Origin: Candidatus Colwellbacteria bacterium
GTDB lineage: Bacteria; Patescibacteriota; Minisyncoccia; UBA6257; Colwellbacteraceae
DNA length: 24,000 nt
Direction: 5' to 3'
Assembly (NCBI GenBank): GCA_028718505.1
Contig: JAQULQ010000007.1
Coordinates: forward strand, 6,353 to 30,352
The first letter of the stretch is position 1. Every line of letters starts with the position of its first letter. The notes beneath the pieces were generated by a model. It had not been told where the DNA came from. It saw only the letters and a program-made list of their open reading frames with translations, and ran no database searches. This document shows, one piece after another, positions 2,938 through 24,000 of the stretch. The position numbers were made by a program, and so were the translations under genes.

Positions 2938-2986
2938 CCGACTAGGTCTTTAAGAGCAAGCTTATCCTCACGAAAGGGGATTGAAT

Positions 2987-3571
2987 ATGAAGTGGTATAT
3001 TCCGTCCGCGTTCAGTTTTTCGAGGCTCATTCTCACCCCAGTAGTGATGTGGCTCATCTTGACCGCCAGATGGAAGTGGGCAGCGCTTGTCTTTGTGGCG
3101 GCCGCTATCACTGACGGTTTGGATGGAGCTTCTGCCCGGCTCTTCGGGGTTATGTCCAAATTCGGCCTCTATCTGGACACGACCGCTGACAAAGTGCTCA
3201 TTTCGTGCACTCTGTTGGCTTTGGCTTTCTCTCAGCGCATTTCGACCTGGGCAGTTTGGGCGGTGGCCGTCATCCTGGCTCGAGAGATTCTCGTCTTGGG
3301 ATTGAAGGCCCAGATTGCTGTTGGGCGGACAGTCCAGCCCTCTTGGTCGGGTAAGATCAAGATGGGCATTGAATGCGTAGCCATTACCTTTGTCATCCTT
3401 CATCCATGGGAATCTGGATGGTTCAGTCTTCCCTGGAGCGACTGGATGCTCGTCGGAGCGGCCCTGGCTGGCCTTCAGTCCGGTACCGGTTATCTCCTGC
3501 GGTATCGACACAGGATTATCGGTCCGGCTGAGGAGGCTTATGCCAGCGAGGAACACCGCTGGGCTGCGTAA
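2987..3571 (+). CDS. pgsA: CDP-alcohol phosphatidyltransferase (PgsA-like)
   Basis: DGLDGASARLFGVMSKFGLYLDTTADKV matches DGxxARx8Gx3Dx3D. Multi-TM and GC-rich, with the SD-like GAAAGGGG upstream of the ATG at 2987. The ORF-track TTG at 2981 is also possible. Confidence 0.85.
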   Translation: MKWYIPSAFSFSRLILTPVVMWLILTARWKWAALVFVAAAITDGLDGASARLFGVMSKFGLYLDTTADKVLISCTLLALAFSQRISTWAVWAVAVILAREILVLGLKAQIAVGRTVQPSWSGKIKMGIECVAITFVILHPWESGWFSLPWSDWMLVGAALAGLQSGTGYLLRYRHRIIGPAEEAYASEEHRWAA

Positions 3572-3585
3572 AGAAGCGAGGCGGA

Positions 3586-3624
3586 GGAGGGGGTTGGTTC
3601 ATCCAGCCCCCTCCGAGATTTTTG
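3586..3624 (+). terminator. Intrinsic terminator after the pgsA-like gene
   Basis: GGAGGGGG (3586-3593) pairs with CCCCCTCC (3607-3614), followed by GAGATTTTT. Confidence 0.6.
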
Positions 3625-3642
3625 TATGTATAATAAAACTAT

Positions 3643-3716
3643 TGCCGGATCGTCTAATGGCAGGACGCCGCGCTCTGGACGCGGTAATCTAGGTTCGAGC
3701 CCTAGTCCGGCAGCCA
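3643..3716 (+). tRNA. tRNA-Gln (anticodon CUG), CCA encoded
   Basis: Acceptor TGCCGGA/TCCGGCA with the U1-A72 pair typical of bacterial tRNA-Gln. Anticodon arm is CCGCG-CTCTGGA-CGCGG with CTG at 3675-3677. T arm is CTAGG-TTCGAGC-CCTAG, followed by discriminator G and CCA. TGTATAAT lies upstream at 3627-3634. Confidence 0.9.
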
Positions 3717-3735
3717 TCTCGTGCTAGCACGAGAT
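3700..3735 (+). repeat. Junction repeat J0: tRNA 3' end + CCATCT hinge + element B
   Basis: AGTCCGGCAGCCATCTCGTGCTAGCACGAGAT. Positions 3716-3735 form a perfect 20-nt palindrome. Confidence 0.7.
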
Positions 3736-3781
3736 CTATAGCCGTCTCGGGCGCACTGAGAGAGGGGTGTAGAATTAACGT

Positions 3782-4447
3782 ATGGACTTCAAAGAAGAAC
3801 TATGGGGAGAGATTCGACCCACCGGCAGATCGGCGGAGGAGTGCTTTGAGGATCTTGGAATATCACTCGAGTTCTTGAAGGGGAAGAAAATCCTTGATAT
3901 CGGATCTGGACTGAACCAGTTTGCCCAAGATCTTAAACAAGAGCACCTTGATCTTACGTCCATCGATATGTTCTATGCGCTAACACCGGAAGAACGGAAA
4001 AAAGTATTCAGTGAGTTGTCTCCGGAGAATTTTGAAACAGTAAAGACAAGTCTTGATAGGATGGCGATTAAGGACAAAGACTCTCATCTCGTTGGAGGAC
4101 GAGCTGAGTCCCTGCCATTTTTAGATGAGACGTTTGACGTCGTGCTCGCAGAGTATTCTATGCCGCACTACGCAGAAAATCGCGAAAGCATGCGAGATTT
4201 CTTTTTTGAAGTTGCTCGCGTTCTAAAGCCAGGAGGAGAGGCTCATATATACCCCATGCGGATTAGGCCGGGACGAAACGTAACAAGAAAGGATGCAGAA
4301 GAGGTCCTTTCAAACTTACGAAATTTGGGATTCTCTGTTGAGGTGTCCGGCAAAGAACTAGGAGATGATCCGCCAGATACAAGGCCACTGCTGTTGGTTC
4401 TTGGAAAACCTCAAATACCCCCAGACCGGGGGGGTCAGCCATCTTGA
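3782..4447 (+). CDS. Class I SAM-dependent methyltransferase
   Basis: ILDIGSGLNQFA (motif I) and VLKPGGEAHIY. TAGAAT lies 6 nt upstream of the ATG. The last 9 codons are encoded by junction element A. Confidence 0.8.
   Translation: MDFKEELWGEIRPTGRSAEECFEDLGISLEFLKGKKILDIGSGLNQFAQDLKQEHLDLTSIDMFYALTPEERKKVFSELSPENFETVKTSLDRMAIKDKDSHLVGGRAESLPFLDETFDVVLAEYSMPHYAENRESMRDFFFEVARVLKPGGEAHIYPMRIRPGRNVTRKDAEEVLSNLRNLGFSVEVSGKELGDDPPDTRPLLLVLGKPQIPPDRGGQPS
4421..4444 (+). repeat. Junction repeat J1: element A + CCATCT hinge (no B)
   Basis: CCAGACCGGGGGGGTCAGCCATCT. Confidence 0.75.
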
Positions 4448-4521
4448 GAAAAATTCGGATGTCCGAAGAGGATTCGAGTCCCGTTGGACACCCATAACAA
4501 ACAGCTTGGTATAATGAAAGT

Positions 4522-5250
4522 ATGAACAAATACTTAGTCGTCGCTTTGGTAGTCATAGTGTTTGGGGCAGTCGGTGTTTTGAGCTACAGATTTTTTCTTT
4601 CTGGTCCCGAAGATACCTGGCTCTGTGAAAATGGAGAATGGATCAAACACGGCAATCCTTCTGCTTCAATGCCGGAGGAGGAGTGCGAAGAAGAGGGAGT
4701 TCGGAATGATGAAGCGGTAAACACTTGGCCTATCTACACTAATGAGTCTTTCGGCATAACATTTGTTTACCCAGAGGGGGCAGAAGTTGTACCTCCTAAC
4801 GGAGAAAGCAACGAGTTTTTTATTCTCTATCCAAAGGATTTAGAGGACCCCGCCATAGTACTGGCAGAGATTAATCCACTAATAATAGGACAAAACATGT
4901 ATGTTTATGATGGGAGCGGCGATGCCAGTGCATTAAGCAAGGCATTCTCGGAAGGGGGCATTAGGGGTGTCGCTAATACGTCGAGAGAGACAAATCTAGG
5001 AGATTACAATCCGAACATCGAGAATGACTTTGTCGGGGCGTTACGGGAATTCAATATTTCGTCCGGAGAAGCATGGGGTTTTGAGGTAGGTGGAGACTTT
5101 ACTTACGGGTTTGTCAGCACTGCCGACGGCACGATAATCGAGACGCGTAGTTACGTAGTTTTTGTGTCTAATGGACAAAGCGTATTCAGAGTGATTGTCC
5201 CGAAGGATAGTCTCGAATCTCTACAAATCCTCGAAAGCCTTGTCGTTTAG
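4522..5250 (+). CDS. Hypothetical secreted/membrane-anchored protein
   Basis: 242 aa with an N-terminal hydrophobic anchor (LVVALVVIVFGAVGVL). TGGTATAAT lies 6 nt upstream of the ATG. No recognisable domain. Confidence 0.6.
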   Translation: MNKYLVVALVVIVFGAVGVLSYRFFLSGPEDTWLCENGEWIKHGNPSASMPEEECEEEGVRNDEAVNTWPIYTNESFGITFVYPEGAEVVPPNGESNEFFILYPKDLEDPAIVLAEINPLIIGQNMYVYDGSGDASALSKAFSEGGIRGVANTSRETNLGDYNPNIENDFVGALREFNISSGEAWGFEVGGDFTYGFVSTADGTIIETRSYVVFVSNGQSVFRVIVPKDSLESLQILESLVV

Positions 5251-5271
5251 TGAGTCTCACTATAGGGGGTA

Positions 5272-5322
5272 CCAGACCGGAGGGGTCAGCCAAGGTTGGA
5301 AGTATCGAGTGACCGAGACGGG
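5272..5322 (+). repeat. Junction repeat J2: A + CCAAGG hinge + B variant
   Basis: CCAGACCGGAGGGGTCAGCCAAGG ... GTGACCGAGACGGG (5309-5322). Confidence 0.75.
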
Positions 5323-5342
5323 TATCAAGGTATACTAAAACT

Positions 5343-5693
5343 ATGAAGTCAGCGCAATCAATCGAAGATTTCTATGTTGGACGTGGTTATCGTGGGGAGA
5401 GACTGAGAAAGGCTCTGGAAGCCGACAGGGAATACCAAGAAGTTCTGAAACGCAAAAGAAGTACATTAACTAAGCGAGTAAATGCGACTAGCGCAGAACA
5501 GCAACGCTATGTCCTCTCAATAGATCCCGATTTCACGATACTGGACCGATGCAAAAAGTTAGAAAAACAAAAGCTATCTTTAAGTGATCAGCAGCTAGTC
5601 CATTTAATTAAATCGCAATTAAAACAGGACTGGAGAAAGCCGCTTAACTCGATGTTAAGAAAGTTGGAGACAAAATACCGTATCGAGAGATAG
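5343..5693 (+). CDS. Hypothetical basic protein (116 aa)
   Basis: Clean ORF with TATACT 6 nt upstream of the ATG. No recognisable motif. Confidence 0.5.
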   Translation: MKSAQSIEDFYVGRGYRGERLRKALEADREYQEVLKRKRSTLTKRVNATSAEQQRYVLSIDPDFTILDRCKKLEKQKLSLSDQQLVHLIKSQLKQDWRKPLNSMLRKLETKYRIER

Positions 5694-5703
5694 TATCGGG
5701 GTA

Positions 5704-5723
5704 TCAGACCGCAGTGGCCATAT
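5704..5723 (+). repeat. Junction repeat J3: degenerate A + CCATAT hinge
   Basis: TCAGACCGCAGTGGCCATAT. A GC-rich module follows immediately. Confidence 0.5.
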
Positions 5724-5730
5724 AGATATT

Positions 5731-5769
5731 TAAAAATGACACGACCCCGCCTCCAATTGGGGTCGTGTC
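5731..5769 (-). terminator. Intrinsic terminator of the minus-strand GC-rich membrane gene
   Basis: GACACGACCCC (5738-5748) pairs with GGGGTCGTGTC (5759-5769). The A-run at 5732-5736 reads as a U-run on the minus strand. Confidence 0.8.
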
Positions 5770-5795
5770 TAATGTACGGCTCCGTGGAACGGGGT

Positions 5796-6182
5796 CTAGT
5801 GAACTAATCGCCCGAGGGTCTTTGCGTCATCTTCCACGATGAGCAGGTAGGGCAGAAGTATGAACGAAGCTCCTGCCAGGGCAGCAACCGCTCTGGCAAG
5901 CCAGATGGCCCACCCCTGCCACCAGTTGGTCCAGAGGCTGATCGCCGCGAGCGTGACTGCTGCCACAACGAGCGTGGCGAGGCAGGCGCCCAGTACTAGG
6001 CGTAGATGACCCGCTCGCCGCCGGGGAAGGGGTGGAAGGAAGGTGGCGGCAAGAATGATGGTCACCACCAGGAATGTGATCGAAGCGATGATGGTCGACC
6101 TCCACTCGTGATCAGCTGGATGGCGGTAGAACGCGGATGGCAACAGGGCGCCGACAAGCACCAGAAAGGTCACGAACAACAT
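5796..6182 (-). CDS. Hypothetical 4-TM membrane protein (GC-rich orphan a)
   Basis: ATG at 6182 preceded by GAGAGGGG. The frame stays open up to 6335, but that stretch is the promoter and leader hairpin. Start is uncertain. Confidence 0.55.
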   Translation of the reverse strand: MLFVTFLVLVGALLPSAFYRHPADHEWRSTIIASITFLVVTIILAATFLPPLPRRRAGHLRLVLGACLATLVVAAVTLAAISLWTNWWQGWAIWLARAVAALAGASFILLPYLLIVEDDAKTLGRLVH

Positions 6183-6238
6183 GACCCCTCTCAGCCTCAG
6201 CCGGTTAGAGCTCGAGTGCTCTCGAGTTTTCGTAAGTT

Positions 6239-6354
6239 CTCCTTTGTCGGGGATATCTAAGCTCAATAAGCTATCAAGCCCAGATATCCCCGACACAGGT
6301 ATATAAATATTCAAAGAACACCCTCTATATGCCATAGGGAGGTCATACAGTCAA
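6239..6354 (-). promoter_or_regulatory. Promoter TTGACT-N17-CATATA plus conserved structured leader, copy 1
   Basis: On the minus strand, the -35 box is at 6354-6349 and the -10 box at 6331-6326. A 14-bp perfect hairpin pairs 6245-6258 with 6282-6295, and AAGGAG is at 6244-6239. Homologous to 10564-10674. Confidence 0.65.
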
Positions 6355-6548
6355 TAATCGAACGACTAGATGATCTTTTATAGATCGTCTCATTTATCCG
6401 ATTTTGATCTCCGCCATAGGCGAGACGAGCCTGGCAGGGACCCTTAGTTTCTGTCACTTTTGTCACCTTTTATACGTGCTCGAAGAGGGTCGTTCTGGTA
6501 TCATAAAGCTAGCTTAAATCGCCAAACAAAGCTTGATCATTATTGGTT

Positions 6549-6589
6549 CCAGCTCGGGGAGGTGAATCATCTAGCGTTAGAGCGAGAAG
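6549..6589 (+). repeat. Junction repeat J3b: degenerate A + CATCT hinge + B variant
   Basis: CCAGCTCGGGGAGGTGAATCATCTAGCGTTAGAGCGAGAAG. Confidence 0.55.
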
Positions 6590-6599
6590 CACCATAAAT

Positions 6600-7139
6600 A
6601 TGGAAAACAAAGTTCTAATAGCCGAAATCTCCAATACTGACTTTGATCCCGAATACAAGATGAGGGATCGGGATAAATATGCTATTAGAAGAGCCGCGCG
6701 CGGGATACTCATTAACGATGGTAAAATTGCGCTTCTAAATGTCACCAAATTTAACTATCACAAATTACCGGGTGGCGGTGTAGAAAAAAACGAAACAATT
6801 GAGAAGGCTTTTAAAAGAGAGGTGGTCGAAGAAACGGGTTGTAAATGCGAAGTATTAGATCAACCGGGAATAGTAATGGAATGGCGCGATCAATGGAGTC
6901 TGCTCCAAATTAGTTATGTTTTTCTAGCTAAAGTTGTGGGTGAGATCGGTAAAAGTAAATTTGAACAGGGAGAAATAGATGAGGGCTTTGAGCTAGGGTG
7001 GGTACCCTTTGAGAAAATAGATGAGATTCTCAAAAATGATAGTCCAACAAATTATGAAGGAAAATTCATAACGATCCGAGATAAAGGTATTTACGAATTC
7101 TATAAAGAAAAACTGCGGGGGAACGTGAAGTTAGCATGA
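6600..7139 (+). CDS. NUDIX hydrolase
   Basis: GGGVEKNETIEKAFKREVVEETG matches the Nudix box Gx5Ex7REUxEExGU. The ATG at 6600 is preferred because the ORF-track start at 6543 lies inside the junction repeat. Confidence 0.85.
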   Translation: MENKVLIAEISNTDFDPEYKMRDRDKYAIRRAARGILINDGKIALLNVTKFNYHKLPGGGVEKNETIEKAFKREVVEETGCKCEVLDQPGIVMEWRDQWSLLQISYVFLAKVVGEIGKSKFEQGEIDEGFELGWVPFEKIDEILKNDSPTNYEGKFITIRDKGIYEFYKEKLRGNVKLA

Positions 7140-7140
7140 T

Positions 7141-7197
7141 ACCGGACCGGAGGGGTCAGCACTCCGACTCGCATTGCTCGCTCAGTGCAAGCCAAGT
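7141..7197 (+). repeat. Junction repeat J4: A + 30-nt insert + CCAAGT hinge
   Basis: ACCGGACCGGAGGGGTCAGCACTCCGAC...GTGCAAGCCAAGT. The insert is homologous to the one in J5. Confidence 0.75.
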
Positions 7198-7206
7198 AGG
7201 GCAACT

Positions 7207-7998
7207 ATGAACTCGATTCATCAGATTAAGCAAAATAGTATCGCTGAATTTGGATCTGTTGCCACACAAAGTCAGTATAAGGAAATTGCCGAGGCGGGGC
7301 TTTGGGAAAGCGAGACAATGCTGATCGAAAAGTACTTCGCGCCAGAGATAAGTGTACTTGATGTGGGTTGTGGTTCGGGAAGAACGACTATACCGCTACA
7401 CCAAGCTGGGTATAGTGTTATCGGAGTTGATATAACTCCCGAGATGATTAATACAGCGCGAAGTGTAGCTAAGTCCAAAAATCTTGAAATAGACTATCTG
7501 GTCGGCGACGCCACACAGCTAGAGTTCGATGATAACACCTTCGAGGGAGCGATTTTCGCAAATAACGGGTGGTCCCAAATTCCAGGGAAAGACAATCGTC
7601 AGAAAACCTTAAATGAGATCTACCGAATTTTAAAGCCAGGCGGTATCTTTATATTTACCGCACACAAAAGATATATATCATTAAACAACTTTTTATCCTG
7701 GTCAGTAGAATGGATAAAGTATCACTTACTAGTTGGCCTTGGTATAAAAATGAAAGGGATTGATTACGGAGATATATTTTTTAGACGAAAATATGATAAA
7801 ACCCAGAGACAATTTATGCATATGGTAGGTACAGAAGAAGTCGCAGGGCAAGTAAAAAAGGCGGGCTTTACGCTCGTTCTAGAGAGGGGGATGGGAGACA
7901 TCTCTGAATCAGACGCAAAAGCAATGAGGGGATCTTTATCTAAGACGTTCAATTCCTATAAATCACCGGTCTTTTATGTTTGTGAAAAACCGAGTTAA
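7207..7998 (+). CDS. Class I SAM-dependent methyltransferase
   Basis: VLDVGCGSGRTTIPL (motif I), DDNTFEGAIF and ILKPGGIFIF. The ATG at 7207 is preferred over the TTG at 7174, which lies in the repeat. Confidence 0.8.
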   Translation: MNSIHQIKQNSIAEFGSVATQSQYKEIAEAGLWESETMLIEKYFAPEISVLDVGCGSGRTTIPLHQAGYSVIGVDITPEMINTARSVAKSKNLEIDYLVGDATQLEFDDNTFEGAIFANNGWSQIPGKDNRQKTLNEIYRILKPGGIFIFTAHKRYISLNNFLSWSVEWIKYHLLVGLGIKMKGIDYGDIFFRRKYDKTQRQFMHMVGTEEVAGQVKKAGFTLVLERGMGDISESDAKAMRGSLSKTFNSYKSPVFYVCEKPS

Positions 7999-8000
7999 CA

Positions 8001-8067
8001 CCAGACCGGAGAGGTCAGCACTTCGGCAAAGCTCGGTGTAAACCAAGTCGTGCTAGCACGAGACGGG
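8001..8067 (+). repeat. Junction repeat J5: A + insert + CCAAGT hinge + B
   Basis: CCAGACCGGAGAGGTCAGCACTTCGGC...AAACCAAGTCGTGCTAGCACGAGACGGG. Confidence 0.8.
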
Positions 8068-8075
8068 TTATAAAC

Positions 8076-8669
8076 ATGACCGAGAAAGAGATTCTAAATC
8101 TTATACAGGCGGATAAATGGATGATGAGGGTTCTTTTAACCGCATCATCTCTCAATCTTAAAGATTGGGCCGTGGGCGCCGGATTTGTTAGGAATAAAGT
8201 GTGGGATTATTTGTCCGGAAAGACTAGAGAGACAGTTGACACAAATGATATTGATTTAGTTTATTTTGATCCAAATGGGAATAACGAAGAGGCTGACAAA
8301 GAATTATCGAAGGAGATGTTAACTCGGACTGGCCTTGATTGGGAGATTGTGAATCAATGCTATGCACACAAGTGGAACAACGTCCCGCCATACAAATCTA
8401 CAAAAGACGCCATAGCACACTGGCCAGAAACAGTGACCGCTATAGGAGTGACTATTGATAAAAATAACAAGCTTAAACTCATTGCCCCGTATGGGATAGG
8501 GGATTTAGTTCACTTCATTGTCAGGCTAAGTCCAAAATTTGAGGGCGGAAGTGGAGTGCTGCAAGAAAGGGTCCGCAAGAAACAGTGGCTAGAGAAATGG
8601 CCAGGGCTTAAGATAGTCAATGAAGGTGCTAGGCCGGAAGGGCCAGCACCTTCGATAAACTCAGTATAA
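8076..8669 (+). CDS. Nucleotidyltransferase family protein (DUF925/NTP_transf_6-like)
   Basis: WAVGAGFVRNKVWDYL...DIDLVYFD is a typical N-terminal nucleotidyltransferase-fold signature of this family. Confidence 0.7.
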   Translation: MTEKEILNLIQADKWMMRVLLTASSLNLKDWAVGAGFVRNKVWDYLSGKTRETVDTNDIDLVYFDPNGNNEEADKELSKEMLTRTGLDWEIVNQCYAHKWNNVPPYKSTKDAIAHWPETVTAIGVTIDKNNKLKLIAPYGIGDLVHFIVRLSPKFEGGSGVLQERVRKKQWLEKWPGLKIVNEGARPEGPAPSINSV

Positions 8670-8670
8670 A

Positions 8671-8695
8671 CCATCTAGTGCTAGACCGAGGAGAG
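8671..8695 (+). repeat. Junction repeat J6: CCATCT hinge + B (no A)
   Basis: CCATCTAGTGCTAGACCGAGGAGAG. It contains GACCGAGGAG (8684-8693), which is repeated at 11290-11299. Confidence 0.75.
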
Positions 8696-8705
8696 TATCC
8701 TTACG

Positions 8706-8734
8706 TTGACAGAATATATTAATTGTGTTATAAG
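8706..8734 (+). promoter_or_regulatory. Near-consensus sigma70 promoter TTGACA-N17-TATAAG
   Basis: TTGACA at 8706-8711 and TATAAG at 8729-8734, about 135 nt upstream of the ATG at 8871. Confidence 0.7.
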
Positions 8735-8784
8735 CTGTGCTAGTTCTATTATAATTTCAATCTTTGCGACAAGTAGACAACCTA

Positions 8785-8863
8785 CAGGGTAAGGAAAGTG
8801 TTTATCAAATATTTGGTAGATACTTTCCTTACCTTGTACTCCGATCTGGGGGTAAGGAGAAAG
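8785..8863 (+). promoter_or_regulatory. Structured 5' leader with SD mimic / anti-SD / SD arrangement
   Basis: A 15-bp hairpin pairs CAGGGTAAGGAAAGT (8785-8799) with ACTTTCCTTACCTTG (8822-8836). The real SD region GGTAAGGAGAAAG (8851-8863) nearly duplicates the 5' arm. Confidence 0.55.
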
Positions 8864-8870
8864 AGGCACC

Positions 8871-9419
8871 ATGCCCGATCGTGAGACAGTTGATATCAGC
8901 GGCCTCTCCAAGGCAGCAGTTCTCGCTGTTCTCTGGAACCACTCGGCTCCCGCCGGAATGGGATTCCTCCAAGCGGCTCTCGGACCCAAAGACGGTATGA
9001 CGGAGGAGGCGGCTTGGGAGATCATCAAGGCCAATGTCGATCCGGACTATCCCGGGCCTCGCACCATGCGGGGAAGCAACCTCAGCTTCGAATACCTCTT
9101 CGGTAGGCCTCTGAAGATCGATCTCGTCGAGAACGAGTTCGATCCGTGGGGCTATGACCGGGACAATGGTGGCGACGGCACGGCCCAACGGATCATCAAC
9201 CAACTCCGTGAAACCGGCGAGGTCAATCCGCCGGAGGCACAGGCCGGACACCGCTCGAAGGTCATCCTCAACGCCCACAGGGCGATGGAGATGGTCAACA
9301 CCGTCTCGACTCTCGAGAAGGGCGGCGGCGTTGCCATATTCCACCTCGGTGCAGACGAGCTCGCCGAGCCGTTGGAGAAGGCCATAGACACTGTCGTCGA
9401 CCGTGTCGAGAGCAGCTGA
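8871..9419 (+). CDS. Hypothetical protein (GC-rich orphan b, 182 aa)
   Basis: Strong SD (GGTAAGGAG) with a GC-rich codon pattern. Overlapping minus-strand ORFs are shadows. I cannot assign a family. Notable motif: GRPLKIDL...FDPWGYDRDNGGDG. Confidence 0.65.
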   Translation: MPDRETVDISGLSKAAVLAVLWNHSAPAGMGFLQAALGPKDGMTEEAAWEIIKANVDPDYPGPRTMRGSNLSFEYLFGRPLKIDLVENEFDPWGYDRDNGGDGTAQRIINQLRETGEVNPPEAQAGHRSKVILNAHRAMEMVNTVSTLEKGGGVAIFHLGADELAEPLEKAIDTVVDRVESS

Positions 9420-9466
9420 TTCACTGACGGAACTCCGTCAAAGCGGCTGCGTCTACTTGTCGCATC

Positions 9467-9517
9467 CGCTTCCATAAATGTGTATTTATGCTGATGAGCT
9501 CAAAAGAGCGAAAAGCG
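9467..9517 (+). ncRNA. Hammerhead self-cleaving ribozyme, type III
   Basis: Stem III CGCUU/AAGCG. C17 at 9472. Stem I is 7 bp, CAUAAAU-GUGU-AUUUAUG. Core CUGAUGA at 9491-9497. Stem II is GCUC-AAAA-GAGC. Core GAA at 9510-9512. A15.1-U16.1 pair is present. Confidence 0.8.
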
Positions 9518-9547
9518 TTACTCTTCTATATAAATCATAGATTATTT

Positions 9548-9561
9548 CAGACCAAGGGGGT
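9548..9561 (+). repeat. Junction element A-like
   Basis: CAGACCAAGGGGGT, compared with CAGACCGGAGGGGT. Confidence 0.45.
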
Positions 9562-9572
9562 TTTTAATATCT

Positions 9573-9624
9573 AAAAAGAACGAGGCCCGCACCGGAAGAC
9601 GACACCGGTGCGAAACACTCGTTC
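9573..9624 (-). terminator. Intrinsic terminator of minus-strand operon (orphans c-d)
   Basis: Nested stems GAACGAG/CTCGTTC (9578-9584 with 9618-9624) and GCACCGG/CCGGTGC (9589-9595 with 9605-9611). The A-run at 9573-9577 reads as a U-run on the minus strand. Confidence 0.75.
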
Positions 9625-9646
9625 CTGATGTCGGCCCCAGTGAGGG

Positions 9647-9660
9647 CCATCTCTAGCTGC
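9647..9660 (+). repeat. Junction hinge + B-like
   Basis: CCATCTCTAGCTGC, compared with CCATCTAGTGCTAG. Confidence 0.45.
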
Positions 9661-9680
9661 TGCCCCCGTCGTTCAAGGCG

Positions 9681-10148
9681 TTACGATGATGCCGGAAAGA
9701 AGTGGGCGACGTGACTCTGGGGCACTCGCATAATGACACGCTGACCCTGCTCGAGCTTCAGGTCGGCCTCCGCCACGACTTCCGGGAGTTCGTCGCCGAA
9801 GGCAATGATCTCTGCCCTCTTAGCGTCGTCGGGGTACGAAACGATTACCCACTTGCCTTCATACTCCGGCTCCATGAGCTGTTCCTGGATACGAACCGGT
9901 ATAACCTGGATGACCTTGCCCCTCCCGTGAAGCACGTCTTCGAGCCAGTGAATGATCCTGCGCTGGAAGGACAGGATCGGGAAGACCGCCAGAAGGTTGC
10001 CAAAGACCATAGACAGCCACCACGGGCTGTGGCCGACCACTATCCACGCGATCGCGAAGAACCCGGGGAGGAAGAGGACCACGACGAGAAGGCAGAGGAT
10101 GAGTGTCAGAAGCGCCAGAAGCCTCAGAATATTGAGAAACGTTCTCAT
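9681..10148 (-). CDS. Hypothetical protein, 2 N-terminal TM helices + soluble C-terminal domain (orphan d)
   Basis: 155 aa with AGGAGG 8 nt upstream of the ATG. GC-rich and second in a two-gene operon. Confidence 0.6.
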   Translation of the reverse strand: MRTFLNILRLLALLTLILCLLVVVLFLPGFFAIAWIVVGHSPWWLSMVFGNLLAVFPILSFQRRIIHWLEDVLHGRGKVIQVIPVRIQEQLMEPEYEGKWVIVSYPDDAKRAEIIAFGDELPEVVAEADLKLEQGQRVIMRVPQSHVAHFFPASS

Positions 10149-10210
10149 TTCGAAAACCTCCTACTCGCGAATAGTCCAGAGATAACAGCTTATTGCGGCG
10201 TAGCGGGTGA

Positions 10211-10555
10211 TCAAAGTCCTCTTCTCGCGCGCTTGGAGGCTCTGATCTTTCTGATGAAGGCTCGCATCACTGTCTCAGGGTTGTCGCCCGGCTCGATACG
10301 CAAGACCGTCCCGTTCCAACTGGAGAGAACCGACGCATAAGCTGTTCTCGCTTTGTCCAGCTGGGACCGGACAATTTCACGCAGGAGCTGACCTGCATAG
10401 GGTTGATAGTAGAGGGTGTGCCCATAACCGGCATTGGGAGACTCCAGAATCGCCAGCAAAAGACTAGCGACGTCCTCTGGAATGCCTCCGTGCGCCACGA
10501 GGGCATTGACTTCCCTTTCAGCGTCTCGAACAGCCAATTCGTAGTTGCACGCCAC
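10211..10555 (-). CDS. Hypothetical protein (orphan c, 114 aa)
   Basis: GTG start at 10555, 8 nt after AGGAG. GC-rich and first gene after the conserved leader. Confidence 0.55.
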   Translation of the reverse strand: MACNYELAVRDAEREVNALVAHGGIPEDVASLLLAILESPNAGYGHTLYYQPYAGQLLREIVRSQLDKARTAYASVLSSWNGTVLRIEPGDNPETVMRAFIRKIRASKRARRGL

Positions 10556-10563
10556 GTTTTCTT

Positions 10564-10674
10564 CTCCTATGTCGAGGTGTCTATATCCAACAAGGTGTTG
10601 GCCACAGATACCTCGACACAGATATTAATTTAAAAGAACATTCTCTGTATGCCACGTGAAGACTACATAGTCAA
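10564..10674 (-). promoter_or_regulatory. Promoter TTGACT-N17-CATACA plus conserved structured leader, copy 2
   Basis: On the minus strand, the -35 box is at 10674-10669 and the -10 box at 10651-10646. A long hairpin spans 10570-10618, and AGGAG is at 10568-10564. Homologous to 6239-6354. Confidence 0.65.
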
Positions 10675-10762
10675 TACGTCTGGCGCCTAAAATATGTACG
10701 TACACTGATCTAGGGAGGTAGAGTCTAGTGTTGAAATAAATTTATTAATACTCATAAACGCA

Positions 10763-10792
10763 GGAACCCCACCACCGGAATGGCGGGGTTCC
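10763..10792 (-). terminator. Probable terminator of orphan e
   Basis: GGAACCCC (10763-10770) pairs with GGGGTTCC (10785-10792). The minus strand continues UGCGUUUAUG. Confidence 0.5.
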
Positions 10793-10810
10793 GCAATTCG
10801 GTAGTGGGGT

Positions 10811-11155
10811 CTATTCAGAGATGACGAGATGGAGTTCACCTCTACGGTTAGCGATGCTGAAGAGTGCCGTGAACTTCAGCCCCATCAGTCTCAGTTCGTA
10901 CTGCATGCCGCTTGGGACGTCGACGATAACGCCCTCGACATCCCATTCGGTCCTATCGCTACCAACGCGATGAAGCCCGTCGATGACTGCCTCGATCCAT
11001 CGACCTGACGACAAGATGTTCCTCACGCTCGGATGCTCAAGCGTGAACCTCACTACTGGTCGATAGTGAGGAGTAGCCCCGTGCGTCCCGAGCAAGGAGA
11101 TGCCCATGTCGAGCAGTGATGGACCATCGATGATGAAGATGTCCCGATCGGTCAT
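10811..11155 (-). CDS. Hypothetical protein (orphan e, 114 aa)
   Basis: ATG at 11155 preceded by TTAGGAGGTCGG. The ORF-track start at 11260 runs through the leader hairpins and promoter. Confidence 0.55.
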   Translation of the reverse strand: MTDRDIFIIDGPSLLDMGISLLGTHGATPHYRPVVRFTLEHPSVRNILSSGRWIEAVIDGLHRVGSDRTEWDVEGVIVDVPSGMQYELRLMGLKFTALFSIANRRGELHLVISE

Positions 11156-11286
11156 CCGACCTCCTAAGGTGCAAGCCCTTATTGAGCAAGAGCAACTCCT
11201 TCCTGAGATTTCTCCCAGAGACCTGATTATCCAATCAGGAATTGTAAGAAAAAAGTACAACTATTATTGACGTACGTCAAATAACC

Positions 11287-11301
11287 CCTGACCGAGGAGC
11301 C
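11287..11301 (+). repeat. Junction element (CCTGACCGAGGAGCC)
   Basis: Contains GACCGAGGAG (11290-11299), identical to 8684-8693. CCTGACCGA recurs at 16660 and 22000. Confidence 0.6.
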
Positions 11302-11464
11302 TAATTCCGCTACATTGTCGTGGCGGACAGACAAAGAAAAGAGCGAAAGAAAGAATGGCGGGGACAGATGGGCGAGAGAATGACTTGAATTCTAATTTTG
11401 GTTAGAATAATCGCTATAGCGTTGAGCTTAGCTCTGTAAGTTAAGCTGCGTGTATACGTATTAG

Positions 11465-11992
11465 ATGATGAGGGCAGGAAATTTGAGAGAAGAATTCACC
11501 AGAGCATATGATAGTTATGCAGATGCAATTTTCAGACATTGCTACTTCAGAGTATCTGACAAAGAGAAGGCAAAGGATCTGATGCAGGAAACTTTTATCC
11601 GTACCTGGGACTACATCGAAAAGGGCAATAAGATTCAATTTAAAAAGATAAAATCTTTTCTGTATAAAACTGCCAGCAACCTGATTATTGATGAATACCG
11701 TAAGAACAAAGGTACTACCTCGTTGGAAGGGTTGCGGGACAAAGGTTTTGAGATTGGGATCAAGCCGGAGCTGGATCGAGCCGCGGATGTTCAGATAGAA
11801 GTGAGGAGGGTAATGGAGGTCTTAGACGACTTAGGCAAACAATATAGGGAGGTGGTAATTATGAGATATATAGACGGACTTGCCCCAAAGGAAATTTCTG
11901 AGATAACGGGGGATACAACTAATAACGTCTCGGTGAAGCTTAATCGCGCAGTGAGAAATATTAAAGAGATTATTGCAGCAGATGAAGAATAA
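11465..11992 (+). CDS. RNA polymerase sigma factor, ECF (sigma-70 group 4)
   Basis: Region 2 is DLMQETFIRTWDY. Region 4 HTH is REVVIMRYIDGLAPKEISEITGDTTNNVSVKLNRAVRNIKE. TATACG lies 6 nt upstream of the ATG. Confidence 0.85.
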   Translation: MMRAGNLREEFTRAYDSYADAIFRHCYFRVSDKEKAKDLMQETFIRTWDYIEKGNKIQFKKIKSFLYKTASNLIIDEYRKNKGTTSLEGLRDKGFEIGIKPELDRAADVQIEVRRVMEVLDDLGKQYREVVIMRYIDGLAPKEISEITGDTTNNVSVKLNRAVRNIKEIIAADEE

Positions 11993-13169
11993 AACAAAAA
12001 GTTTATTCCAGGGTGCTGATAAAATGACTCTGACCGATAAGGAGAAAGAGGGAGTTAAATACATCATTAATGCGTATATCGACACCCACCCCGTAAGAGT
12101 CGGGCTCTTAGAACGTATTAGAGAGCAAAGGTCGGCAAGGAAATCAAAGTTAAGAATAATGCCATTAGCATTAGCATTACTACTGACTTTTAGCGGGGGA
12201 ACCGCACTGGCGGCTAGCGGATCTCTACCAGGAGACCTACTCTATCCGGTGAAAGTCGGTATAAACGAGCAACTTAGAGGAGCAATAGCTTTTACTAGTG
12301 AGGCCCAGGCGAATTATCAGGGCGATCTTGCTGCCAGAAGGATAGCAGAGATGGAGCAGCTCGCCGCCGAGGGAAAACTAGGAGCGGACATAAAAGAAAA
12401 AGCCGAGGCTCGCTTTGAGAAACACTCAGAGAAAACACTTGATTTGATTGAGAAGCTGGAGGCAAAGGGAAACTTTAAAGCCGCAGCTGCCGTAAGCTCC
12501 AGGTTTGAGGCTTCTTTGGAGGCCCACGAAGAGCTAATAGCTGAGATGTCCGAGAGGGGAGAATCTATAAGAACTCGCCTTGCGGACATACAAACAAGAA
12601 TAAATTCAAGGTTAAATGCAGCAGCTCAAGCAAGAATTGACGCAGAAGCTCAGATAACAGCAGAAGGCGAACAAGCTAAGAGCGAGTTGCGGGCTTCCAT
12701 AGAAACTAGAGCAAGACAATCTGAAAGGGAAATTAGCTCTGCTGAAAGTGAGCTTAGGAAATACGAGGCCGGGCTTAGTAGCCGAGTGAAGGCCGAGGTG
12801 GAAGCCAGGATCAAGGCCGCTGAAGACGCTCACGCAAACGGCGTAGCGCAAATGGAGGTTAATAATCCTACTGCCGCTCTCAAATACTTCCAGAACTCGG
12901 TAAATCTTACATACCAGTCTGAAGTGATGATGAGGTCGTGGATATCTTTCGCTCTTAAACTCGAGGAAAGAAATAGATTCCAAGGCGGAGACGGGGACGA
13001 TGTTTCCAACGACAACGTCGATGAAGTTGAACAGGAGGAAGAAAGTAGCCAAGAAGAAAGCAACATCGAAACCGAGACTAACATGGGAGGTAGTATCGAT
13101 GTTGATACGGGCGGTCTGGACGCCGGAGTGAACGGTAGGCTTGATGGCCAGATTAGAATAGGATCGTAG
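11973..13169 (+). CDS. Putative anti-sigma / DUF5667-like single-pass coiled-coil protein
   Basis: Overlaps the sigma gene end. A TM segment (LRIMPLALALLLTF) is followed by PGDLLYPVKVGINE and a long Ala/Glu-rich coiled coil. Start is ambiguous (11973, 11982 or 12024). Confidence 0.6.
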   Translation: MQQMKNKTKSLFQGADKMTLTDKEKEGVKYIINAYIDTHPVRVGLLERIREQRSARKSKLRIMPLALALLLTFSGGTALAASGSLPGDLLYPVKVGINEQLRGAIAFTSEAQANYQGDLAARRIAEMEQLAAEGKLGADIKEKAEARFEKHSEKTLDLIEKLEAKGNFKAAAAVSSRFEASLEAHEELIAEMSERGESIRTRLADIQTRINSRLNAAAQARIDAEAQITAEGEQAKSELRASIETRARQSEREISSAESELRKYEAGLSSRVKAEVEARIKAAEDAHANGVAQMEVNNPTAALKYFQNSVNLTYQSEVMMRSWISFALKLEERNRFQGGDGDDVSNDNVDEVEQEEESSQEESNIETETNMGGSIDVDTGGLDAGVNGRLDGQIRIGS

Positions 13170-13196
13170 AGAGTCTTCTCAGGGGGTAAACCACGG

Positions 13197-13232
13197 ACAA
13201 AACCTCGCATTCAAGTGCGGGGTTTTGTTCGT
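13197..13232 (+). terminator. Intrinsic terminator
   Basis: A 13-bp stem pairs ACAAAACCTCGCA with TGCGGGGTTTTGT, with a TTCAAG loop. Confidence 0.65.
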
Positions 13233-13388
13233 ATACGCAACAAGGAAAGGACGTTCATTCAGTGCCTTCTCATAGAGACGACTACGGTGAAAAGGGGGCC
13301 GGCCAAACAGAGCATAGCATTGGGGTGGCTGAGATGTATAATTTAATTAGGTCGTCGGGTTAAACGTACAAACCAATTTTGAATAAAT

Positions 13389-23126: not shown

Positions 23127-23203
23127 CCTCTGTGAACTTCAAAAGTACGACGGGAGAGGGGAGCGGCCACAGTTGTCTGCGACCGCTCCCCATCCCGGTT
23201 GGG

Positions 23204-24000
23204 TTACGCCTCCACCTCCTTGAGGGGGGCGTCAGTAGCGGGAGCTGGAGCGACCGGCGAGACGAGACTCGCCAGTGCTTCTCCCTTGGTCAGCCTGCGG
23301 GTCAGAGTGCTGAAAAGGGCATCTATAGATGACCCCTCAGCACCGACCTGCACATCCGGAGTGATCCGGACGTTTCCCTTGCCGACTTCGCCCATGACGG
23401 CGATGGCTGCAGTCGCTTCTGCACCCACGGCCTCCACTTGGGCCTTGTAAGCATCGGCCTGAGCCAGACCGATTGCTTTCGTGGCCGTAGCGTTGGCCAG
23501 ACCCTTGACCTCGATGACCTGAGCTTCGGCCGTACCAGTGGCGAGGGTGAAGGCTGCCTGCCCTCTGGCCTTGTTCTCCTGAGACTTGGCATCGTTGTCA
23601 GCAACAGTGACCCGAACCACCGAACGAGCCAGTTCCTCCTGCATCTCAGCGGTACCTCTGGTCGCCTCAAAAGCGACACGAGTCTGCTGAGCACGTTCCT
23701 TCTCTTGGAAGGTCGCCTGCTCCTGACGGGCAATCTCACGCTCCTGAAGGACTTTGACCAGTCCTTCCGGCAAAACCACATCCTGGATGTAGACGCCGCG
23801 CGTCTCCACCTGATACCCCGCGAGGTATTCTCGAATGTGCTTTTCCGCCGCTGCCTGCACTTGGTCTCGGGTCTCGATGAACTCGATGGCAGGCAATTTC
23901 TGCAGAGCATTGCGGAAGTAGTTGCCGACGGCGCTCTGCAGAACTTCGTTGACGAGCGCTTGCATCGTCCCGACCATGCTGATGACCTTAGGAGCCAAAG
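23204..24000 (-). CDS. SPFH/band-7 flotillin-like protein, 5'-truncated by window edge
   Basis: Translates YIQDVVLPEGLVKVLQEREIARQE followed by a long Ala/Glu/Gln-rich flotillin-type helical region. GC-rich, with the frame open to the window end. Confidence 0.8.
   Translation of the reverse strand, partial: LAPKVISMVGTMQALVNEVLQSAVGNYFRNALQKLPAIEFIETRDQVQAAAEKHIREYLAGYQVETRGVYIQDVVLPEGLVKVLQEREIARQEQATFQEKERAQQTRVAFEATRGTAEMQEELARSVVRVTVADNDAKSQENKARGQAAFTLATGTAEAQVIEVKGLANATATKAIGLAQADAYKAQVEAVGAEATAAIAVMGEVGKGNVRITPDVQVGAEGSSIDALFSTLTRRLTKGEALASLVSPVAPAPATDAPLKEVEA

Follow-up and report, generated by a model that had tools for sequence, protein, structure and literature searches.

The 24,000-nucleotide (nt) stretch analysed here, positions 6,353 to 30,352 of contig JAQULQ010000007.1 from a Candidatus Colwellbacteria metagenome-assembled genome (MAG), is referred to below as the window. 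Downstream of a tRNA-Gln gene it contains an array of small genes separated by copies of a composite repeat, in which a left module is followed by one of several interchangeable right arms. Judged by its sequence, the left module is a non-functional look-alike of the T-loop-to-CCA end of tRNA-Gln. The anatomy of the junctions, their co-orientation with the genes, the near-invariance of the left module, the arms held in common with tRNA-Gln genes and the rearrangements located at junctions were all directly observed. The reading preferred here, held at slightly less than even confidence, is that of a modular, lineage-restricted junction repeat, which would act as a portable gene-end/gene-start block and as a crossover point, in the manner of the PeSL blocks of T4-like phages and of bacterial interspersed mosaic elements (BIMEs). 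Nothing shows a dedicated, integron-like cassette machine. Besides the source MAG, related Patescibacteria contigs and a single Saccharibacteria MAG (L061) were found to carry loci of the family; these loci are designated by L numbers.

Structure of the junction repeat

An earlier note, made from the window alone, had described a repeat composed of two short elements, A and B, joined by a hinge of six bases. Four copies of element A with at most one mismatch are located at 4421, 5272, 7142 (previously placed at 7141) and 8001, against 0 expected in 100 shuffles, and degenerate copies were confirmed at about 5704 and 6549. Element B was found at 3721, 8050 (previously 8051) and 8678, and in addition at 14584; 7 matches with two mismatches or fewer compare with 1.2 expected, and the conserved part of the element is the sequence GTGCTAG. 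Element A is the core of a left module of 21-27 nt, GGGGTACCAGACCGGAGGGGTCAGCCA. The hinge does not stand as a separate part, being formed by the CCA which closes the left module and the first three bases of the right arm; left and right sequences switch directly behind the CCA. Behind the CCA at least five unrelated types of right arm are found, most of them containing a GTGCTAG box, a promoter-like module TGACCGAG...TATACT, or both:

Right arm R1: YCT-CGTGCTAGCACGAG...TCTCGGGCGCA
Right arm R2: AGG-TTGGAAGTRTCGAGTGACC (AGGTTGGAAGTATCGAGTGACC behind A at 5272)
Right arm R3: AGT-AGGRCACAGTATCGYGCATRACCGAA
Right arm R4: YCT-AGTGCTAGACCGAG
Right arm R5: TCT-TGAG

In some copies an insert of 23-61 nt separates GTCAGC from CCA. 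A profile of the left module detects 15 significant copies in the window and the related loci, all on the strand of the genes. In the window, upstream genes have their stop codon inside the junction or 2-21 nt ahead of A. Across the family the left edge of the module is ragged, being cut at varying points by the upstream genes. The order of genes and junction elements in the window is as follows.

3643-3716, plus strand: tRNA-Gln, anticodon CTG (ARAGORN; Rfam tRNA model, 57.4 bits)
3717-3781, plus strand: right arm R1, TCT + CGTGCTAGCACGAG + ...TCTCGGGCGCA..., then a -10-like TAGAAT (3770-3775) six nt 5' of the methyltransferase 1 ATG
3782-4447, plus strand: S-adenosylmethionine (SAM) methyltransferase 1 (Pfam Methyltransf_11/25)
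4421-4447, plus strand: junction J1, left module CCAGACCGGGGGGGTCAGC + CCA + TCT + TGAG (arm R5)
4454-4515, plus strand: remainder of J1, with palindrome TTCGGATGTCCGAA (4454-4467), T-loop-like GGATTCGAGTCCCGTTGGACACCCA (4470-4494) and -10 TATAAT (4510-4515) six nt 5' of the next ATG
4522-5250, plus strand: orphan open reading frame (ORF), 242 amino acids (aa), signal-like N-terminus (no Pfam or PHROGs family)
5252-5292, plus strand: left part of junction J2, upstream-block remnant (GAGTCTCACTATAGGGGGTA) + left module CCAGACCGGAGGGGTCAGCCA
5293-5342, plus strand: right arm R2 of J2 (AGGTTGGAAGTATCGAGTGACC) leading into GTGACC-16 nt-TATACT, six nt 5' of the orf3 ATG (promoter scan match, 5309-5336)
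5343-5693, plus strand: orf3, basic orphan ORF, 116 aa (Pfam and PHROGs scans)
5694-5722, plus strand: degenerate upstream block and left module (TATCGGGGTATCAGACCGCAGTGGCCATA)
5738-6335, minus strand: G+C-rich (61%) ORF at 5796-6335, 179 aa, and an intrinsic terminator belonging to it at 5738-5769 (z = -2.3)
6453-6599, plus strand: promoter-bearing conserved module (6453-6556), then degenerate left module + TCATCT + AGCGTTAGAGCGAG (6545-6586), before NUDIX
6600-7139, plus strand: NUDIX hydrolase (Pfam PF00293)
7142-7206, plus strand: junction J3, left module CCGGACCGGAGGGGTCAGC + 31-nt insert + CCAAGT + AGGGCAACT
7207-7998, plus strand: SAM methyltransferase 2 (Pfam Methyltransf_25/11)
8001-8075, plus strand: junction J4, left module + 23-nt insert + CCAAGT + CGTGCTAGCACGAGACGGGT
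8076-8669, plus strand: NTP_transf_6 (DUF925) nucleotidyltransferase (Pfam PF06042, E = 1.3e-51)
8629-8690, plus strand: junction J5, degenerate left module CTAGGCCGGAAGGGCCAGC (8629-8647) + 23-nt insert + CCATCT + AGTGCTAGACCGAG (arm R4)
11287-11310, plus strand: promoter-like module CCTGACCGAGGAGCCTAATTCCGC, not followed by a left module (26/26 identical to L123 12139-12164)
13171-13198, plus strand: upstream-block remnant (GAGTCTTCTCAGGGGGTAAACCACGGAC) immediately 3' of the DUF5667 gene; an intrinsic terminator comes next (z = -6.0)
14560-14596, plus strand: degenerate left module (GGTGACCGGCCGAGGGGTTA) + TTC + GGTGCTAGACCGAG (exact B), between a 382-aa ORF and NTPase_I-T

The window is chromosomal; RNase P RNA is encoded at 1184-1598 (114.8 bits), and the tRNA-Gln to which the earlier note had anchored the array is the sole tRNA. 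The array consists mainly of single-ORF, co-oriented units with the repeat site between them. The six gene assignments made in the earlier note are borne out by the Pfam scan, while the run of same-strand genes is broken by one exception, the minus-strand ORF at 5796-6335. The extent of 3700-8695 given for the array leaves out the copies or remnants at 11287-11310, 13171-13198 and 14560-14596.

Single junctions differ in their relation to the neighbouring genes. As previously noted, the ORF of methyltransferase 1 runs through the left module, its stop codon lying within CCATCTTGA. The region 8671-8695 had been regarded as hinge and B without A, but a degenerate A and a 23-nt insert are present inside the 3' end of the NTP_transf_6 gene: J5 (8625-8693) aligns end to end with J4 (7999-8066), with a global alignment score of 21 against -7.9 +/- 3.9 for shuffled sequences. 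The encoded protein is 197 aa long, compared with 176-187 aa for its homologues, and J5 encodes its final ~14 codons. The combination CCATCT + GTGCTAG recurs at 3714 and 8671 with 81% identity, and the layout of J3 (A, insert, CCAAGT) is also found in L123 and L132.

Two further observations concern J1. The tRNA-like fragment GGATTCGAGTCCCGTTGGACACCCA at 4470-4494, the second in the window, sits in a long hairpin of this junction. In contigs L120 and L122, which were assembled from sample SRR22315506, the source of the window, breaks are found at 4462-4487 and near 5749, which hints at a repeat or at strain variation at these sites.

Correspondence with the tRNA-Gln 3' end

The resemblance, pointed out previously, of A plus hinge to the 3' end and flank of the tRNA is supported by alignment. 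The left module can be aligned without gaps to the T-loop-to-CCA end of tRNA-Gln, which in the window is its positional equivalent; between GGTTCGAGCCCTAGTCCGGCAGCCA and the tRNA sequence GGTACCAGACCGGAGGGGTCAGCCA 15/25 positions match, chiefly in the T-loop and in the terminal CAGCCA, and T54-T55-C56 of the T-loop is changed to T-A-C. Moreover, right arms of the same types stand behind true tRNA ends and behind A copies. R1, located behind the tRNA-Gln of the window, is also found behind tRNA-Gln in L121 (~74% nucleotide identity) and behind A copies in L125 and L136, while R2, located behind A at 5272, follows the real tRNA-Gln of L125. Since right arms are common to tRNA ends and A copies, the mosaic pattern described in the earlier note is real and general.

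The left modules are near-invariant between genomes whose coding DNA is only 68-81% identical. The left part of J2 is 95% identical to L125 4779-4819 over 41 nt, and matches L123 242-268 at 27/27 positions.

In L136 (52-125) two left modules are arranged in tandem, 15 nt apart, and the second one (GGTTCTAGAGACTGGAGAGGTCAGCCA) is nearer to the tRNA T-loop than the first.

Full-length units and promoter-like modules

In L125, L127, L136 and L123 the left module is part of a larger unit. It is preceded by a block of ~45 nt (AAAGAACCYTYTCTGGGTCTCACNGTAGGGGGTA), in turn preceded by a promoter-like sequence, (C)TGACCGAGACCCCTAATTCMGMTATACT. These full-length units are ~84% identical over 118 nt and share a constant 3' end at CCA; the left-module copies of the window are 5'-truncated versions of them. 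A promoter scan detects CTGACC/ATGACC-17-TATACT in both full-length units of L125. The promoter-like module is also found directly before an ORF in L123, and at L123 12139-12164 it lies directly 5' of a YjbQ gene. The module at 6453-6556 of the window is 74% identical to L123 2784-2887, located there 5' of NTP_transf_6.

Within the array, -10-like boxes (TAGAAT, TATAAT and TATACT) are located six nt before the ATGs at 3782, 4522 and 5343 (3770-3784, 4510-4524 and 5331-5345), an arrangement which suggests that these ORFs may be translated from leaderless mRNAs. Similar boxes, TATAAA among their types, are found 6-7 nt before the first base of tRNA-Gln (3628-3642) and of RNase P RNA (1170-1183).

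The sequence CTCACTATAGGG (5256; L061 3244) was considered for its likeness to T7/T3 phage promoters and set aside as a coincidence, full-length copies reading GGGTCTCACNGTAGGGGGTA.

Distribution of the family

A scan of reference genomes with A alone returned at least 118 matches, mostly single chance matches in G+C-rich genomes; L061 is the only true relative among the matches listed, and L053 and L119 were discarded as chance matches in coding DNA. In L061 a tRNA-Gln(TTG) gene is followed, 24 nt behind, by a true tRNA 3' fragment of foreign tRNA-Gln type with intact T-arm, and then by accessory genes on the same strand, one junction of which holds an A copy. Fragment and A copy are homologous over ~56 nt and have TGCGACCCYTACCGAGACGGGT in common.

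Contig L123 (GCA_964452685.1) was reached through the closest homologue of NTP_transf_6 (82% identity). It carries at least five copies within 3.5 kb, behind or before different genes, and 0 tRNA genes in 13.5 kb.

In metagenomes, a first scan with A plus GAGACGGGT gave no match. A specific 21-nt pattern, applied to the Joint Genome Institute (JGI) metagenomes, identified six true family contigs with a G+C content of 0.43-0.47; G+C-rich matches to the same pattern were rejected as chance matches in coding sequences. In L125/L133 a tRNA-Gln(TTG) gene heads an array in which copies lie 854, 2009, 2650 and 4010 nt 3' of the tRNA; the genes between these copies encode orphan proteins, a serine hydrolase and a HIT-like protein. 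No module was found in the Patescibacteria contexts of more distant NTP_transf_6 orthologues (L139, L140, L142, L143), and the phage, plasmid and IMG/VR collections yielded no family member.

A perfect 31-nt direct repeat is also present in L125 (2393-2423 and 2770-2800). It spans the promoter and first bases of tRNA-Gln and flanks a GIY-YIG ORF of 82 aa, upstream of which the DNA is G+C-rich; the arrangement looks like the insertion of a small nuclease gene before the tRNA.

Rearrangements at and away from the junctions

The sequences of L125 and L133 are 99.98% identical over 4084 nt and become unrelated straight after ...CAGCCAGC / ...ACAGCCAGC. Past the point where L133 and L132 diverge from L125 one variant opens with CATCTTGAG, as the window does at 4440, and both variants occur in one sample. 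This is the single strain-level breakpoint located at a junction (L125 vs L133/L132).

Between genomes, a gene and the left module behind it remain linked, whereas the arm 5' of the gene does not. For NTP_transf_6, the homology of the window with L123 (79%) starts at the ATG and stops precisely where the left module ends, at 8647, and both flanks differ; for the 382-aa ORF at 13389, the left module is kept behind the L127 ortholog while the right arm is different. Blocks encoding FNR/cytochrome b5 and CsoR/CopA are found in another order in L132.

Not every rearrangement coincides with a junction. The orf3 unit is absent at the corresponding place of L125, and the boundaries of this indel are marked by AGTGRCC rather than by the CCA junction, as is typical of unspecific recombination.

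The region 42-3418 of L143 carries, adjacent to each other and with no repeats, genes for NTP_transf_6, NUDIX, a Ham1-type ITPase, a 5'-nucleotidase and DUF5667; in the window, NUDIX, NTP_transf_6, DUF5667 and NTPase_I-T are contained within 8.5 kb (6600-15136). Since these neighbours occur in L143 without repeats, the genes of the window are not an arbitrary set of captured cassettes, and the repeats and insertions appear to have entered an inherited neighbourhood. NUDIX, NTP_transf_6, DUF5667 and NTPase_I-T may thus represent an ancestral nucleotide-housecleaning group, later punctuated and expanded.

Short CCTGACCGA motifs, corresponding to the start of the promoter-like module, are located in the window at 16660-16668 and 21999-22007. 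They border a CsoR-CopA-DsbD and an FNR-cytochrome b5 block, whose order is opposite in L132 (923-4963).

Interpretation and alternative explanations

According to the preferred reading, each junction would close one gene and open the next. The upstream stop codon falls in the left module, (GGGGTA)CCAGACCGGAGGGGTCAGCCA, or within about 20 nt before it; an interchangeable right arm follows, in most cases with a GTGCTAG box and/or TGACCGAG, then ~12-17 nt and TATACT, and the next gene often begins six nt past this -10 box, as it would in a leaderless mRNA. In full-length copies, a second promoter-like module and the ~45-nt block precede the left module. Such blocks may copy the arrangement of a tRNA-Gln 3' end followed by its trailer and by the next promoter. 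Repeated in direct orientation every 0.6-1.3 kb, they would allow recombination, homologous or based on short homology and requiring no dedicated enzyme, to delete, insert or reshuffle single genes; left and right arms would end up in mosaic combinations, and the accessory region 3' of tRNA-Gln would become hyperplastic.

This reading is preferred because the family is dispersed, with copies in L123 in the absence of tRNA genes and at 13171 and 14560 of the window, and because the modules have a promoter-like content, are conserved above the level of coding DNA and are not accompanied by a recombinase in the window, L123, L125 or L061. The earlier note had favoured a recombination-built cassette array and had named a BIME-like mosaic intergenic repeat as the alternative. 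The former retains the mosaic, the three tRNA-Gln arrays and the L125/L133 breakpoint, and is weakened by the lack of a recombinase, by the tRNA-free copies of L123 and by the AGTGRCC boundaries of orf3; the latter fits at least as well.

Several observations weigh against the reading proposed here. The boundary between left and right sequences is sharp and always placed right after CCA. The tRNA genes present in all family loci are three, every one a tRNA-Gln, and the array starts at the tRNA-Gln CCA end in three lineages (window, L061 and L125/L133), a link which a purely regulatory repeat does not predict. Colwellbacteria-like genomes and a Saccharibacteria MAG have a conserved 19-nt core in common, whereas other Patescibacteria lack the family, a distribution suggestive of horizontal movement or of a specific protein which recognises the sequence. 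The tRNA-Gln 3' fragment found in L061 in place of A looks like an integration scar. Furthermore, inspection of J3, J4 and J5 revealed no convincing promoter, the promoter activity of the junction modules is a prediction only, and neither a terminator nor a stable RNA structure suited to a gene-end function was found at the junctions.

A site-specific cassette system, in which a recombinase encoded at another place in the genome or by a helper element would exchange strands right after the CCA, would better account for the sharp boundary, for the patchy distribution and for the link to tRNA-Gln. Such a system is considered unlikely, and the same holds for its supposed layout, in which the tRNA-Gln 3' end would be the primary attachment site and the look-alike the site borne by cassettes instead of an attC. 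Arrays beginning at tRNA-Gln, identical right arms behind real tRNA ends and A copies, ORFs extending into the site, a left module near-invariant in several genomes and taxonomically patchy, and a strain-level divergence located between ...CAGC and CATCTTGAG would all be expected of it. However, no recombinase was detected by Pfam and PHROGs scans in any sizeable ORF of the window nor in L061, L123 and L125, i.e. in ~60 kb of family loci, and these scans also failed to reveal an integron-type intI beside the first site or, in the window, an integrase gene within the would-be island. In addition, the arm 5' of NTP_transf_6 is not conserved with its gene, the orf3 indel is not bounded by junctions, the left module has a ragged left boundary, several units have predicted promoters of their own, NUDIX and NTP_transf_6 are adjacent elsewhere with no repeats between them, and the strain-level breakpoint is a single one.

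tRNA-like "t-elements" separate messages in plant mitochondria. By analogy, the enzyme which matures tRNA 3' ends could also cut read-through transcripts after ...GGUCAGCCA, so as to separate upstream and downstream messages. The co-orientation of all copies with transcription, their location at gene 3' ends and retention behind orthologous genes, a boundary matching a tRNA-type CCA end, the presence of the same trailers behind true tRNA and the location of J3 and J4 between genes with no promoters of their own would fit such a role. We regard it as rather improbable, as the module shows no tRNA-like or minihelix fold: the T-stem is lost, T54-T55-C56 is altered, and the tRNA covariance model (RF00005 and its clan) detects the true tRNA-Gln only, at E values up to 10. 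Folding energies of junction RNAs are those of shuffled sequences (z between -1.8 and +1.2), and the hairpin following the junction has no statistical support. A conserved B hairpin with compensatory changes was likewise discarded (61.7% of cells pair, a value reached in 339/500 shuffles).

Scars left by serial integration of elements targeting tRNA-Gln, whose integrases and most other genes would since have been lost, would account for the alignment of the left module with the 3' part of the tRNA, for the genuine foreign-type fragment, T-arm intact, located 24 nt behind the tRNA-Gln of L061, for the second tRNA-like fragment at 4470-4494 and for the segments of deviant G+C content in and beside the array. 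This origin is quite doubtful. A copies match each other at 18-19/19 positions and the local tRNA at 15/25, and cannot be displaced native fragments because they are closer to each other than to the local tRNA; they are also alike in genomes whose tRNA-Gln acceptor stems differ. Moreover, units are single genes at regular spacing, copies occur in tRNA-free loci and no integrase remnants were found.

Finally, it is very improbable that the full-length unit (promoter module, ~45-nt block and A to CCA) is a family of small-RNA genes of which the window copies are remnants: units in L125, L127, L136 and L123 do combine a well-spaced promoter-like module with a constant CCA 3' end and ~84% identity over 118 nt, but they show no consensus structure or compensatory pairs, correspond to no Rfam family (no match in junctions of the window, L127 and L136) and have no terminator behind them, and all window copies are 5'-truncated. 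A structured small RNA was rejected on the same grounds, no covarying pairs being found.

Patescibacteria (the candidate phyla radiation) have tiny genomes, and the gain, loss and expression of their accessory genes are little understood. With the junction block, genome plasticity in these uncultivated organisms can be addressed in a concrete and testable way. If the block carried only portable expression signals, it would provide the first promoter and gene-boundary consensus for the group, along with evidence for leaderless genes; if a recombinase acted on it, it would represent a second, independent invention of the integron principle.

Other features of the window

The G+C content of the window is ~43-47%, with segments of 55-62% at 3000-3700, 5740-6330, 8850-11100 and 23200-24000. 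The CDP-alcohol phosphatidyltransferase gene located just 5' of tRNA-Gln (2981-3571; 55-57% G+C) has one relative at 70% identity, its best homologues being otherwise from Actinomycetota (~40%), which suggests that it may have been acquired horizontally. The orphan ORF at 4522-5250 has no close relatives, and weak ones at its N-terminus only.

Segments of 55-62% G+C with minus-strand ORFs are located directly 3' of junction copies in the window (5725-6335 and 9561-10800), in L123 (369-1420 and 2270-2780) and in L125 (2900-3500). At one end they carry an intrinsic terminator, with the plus-strand tail TAATATCTAAAAA(T)GA, and at the other an AT-rich promoter region resembling ATATTAATTTAAAAGAACAT. 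Their terminator regions are 82-90% identical across genomes and their ORFs differ; the terminator region of the ORF at 5796-6335 is 82% identical to L125 2903-2978.

A perfect 14-nt inverted repeat (TGCGACAAGTAGAC / GTCTACTTGTCGCA; 8765-8778 and 9451-9464) encloses a G+C-rich orphan ORF (8871-9419). Directly 3' of its right arm begins a motif resembling the type III hammerhead (9465-9519, plus strand), which scores 33.2 bits against a gathering score of 48.5 (E = 0.0011); its cores, CUGAUGAG and CGAAA, are complete and it has three short stems. No such motif was found in any related locus.

Comparison with known systems

The comparison with tRNA-targeting genomic islands, tandem accretion and CIME-type elements draws in part on general knowledge. 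As in tRNA-targeting islands (Islander/TIGER, PMC4383910), accessory DNA extends from a tRNA 3' end, direct repeats resembling that end mark internal boundaries and, in L061 only, a true displaced tRNA fragment is present. Unlike in such islands, there is no integrase, the units are single genes of 0.6-1.3 kb, and the repeat does not appear to be a copy of the tRNA end at which the array starts, and shows conservation instead of decay.

Integrons also have co-oriented single-gene units, a recurring site into which ORFs run, a fixed anchor at one end of the array, hybrid junctions and a content which differs between close strains. Here, however, no IntI or other recombinase is encoded nearby, the site lacks the R''/L''-L'/R' symmetry and the GTTRRRY core, it is conserved in sequence and not in structure, several units have their own predicted promoter and the anchor is a tRNA end. 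The absence from the window of attC cores and of a recombinase, noted previously, was confirmed by fold and symmetry checks and by the Pfam and PHROGs scans; an attC reading was rejected, as neither RYYYAAC...GTTRRRY cores nor complementarity between junction ends were found.

BIMEs of E. coli and the pneumococcal boxA-B-C (BOX) repeats are modular, mosaic, extragenic sequences located behind stop codons, dispersed and lineage-restricted. The junction repeat resembles them in that its modules occur in varied orders and subsets and are extragenic, dispersed and lineage-restricted: a wide variety of genes in the window, L123, L125 and L127 have a copy behind them, and right arms of five or more types occur. 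It differs in that its modules are not palindromic REP (repetitive extragenic palindromic) units, are all co-oriented, resemble a tRNA end and a promoter and, within the available contigs, are clustered rather than spread genome-wide. The palindromy of A is confined to a 4-bp GACC/GGTC stem, compared with the 20-40 nt of a REP-type palindrome; REP-like hairpins and terminators were rejected at the junctions, which fold no better than shuffled sequences and have no T-tracts, and no RAYT (IS200/IS605-like) transposase is encoded in the window.

In function, the closest known system appears to be that of the PeSL cassettes, the mosaic make-up being more like that of BIME and BOX repeats. In T4-like phages, PeSL (promoter-early stem-loop) blocks, composed of a conserved promoter and a further motif and located between small non-essential ORFs, mediate indels (Arbiol et al. 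2010, PMC2839356; Comeau et al. 2014, PMC4122927). The host is here a bacterial chromosome and not a phage, the arrays are tied to tRNA-Gln, and the part of the block other than the promoter is a look-alike of a tRNA 3' end in place of a G/C stem-loop terminator; no stable or covarying hairpin and no T-tract of a PeSL-type terminator or attenuator was found at the junctions. As to the promoter, consensus-like hexamers at the correct spacing are present in J2 and in the full-length units, and -10 boxes before three ORFs, with none in J3-J5. The two systems resemble each other in several respects: short composite blocks fill the space between the stop and start codons of successive small non-essential ORFs, combine a sigma-70-type promoter, here predicted for some of the junctions, with another motif, are concentrated in a hyperplastic region and bound the indels and replacements seen between close relatives, with no need for a dedicated recombinase.

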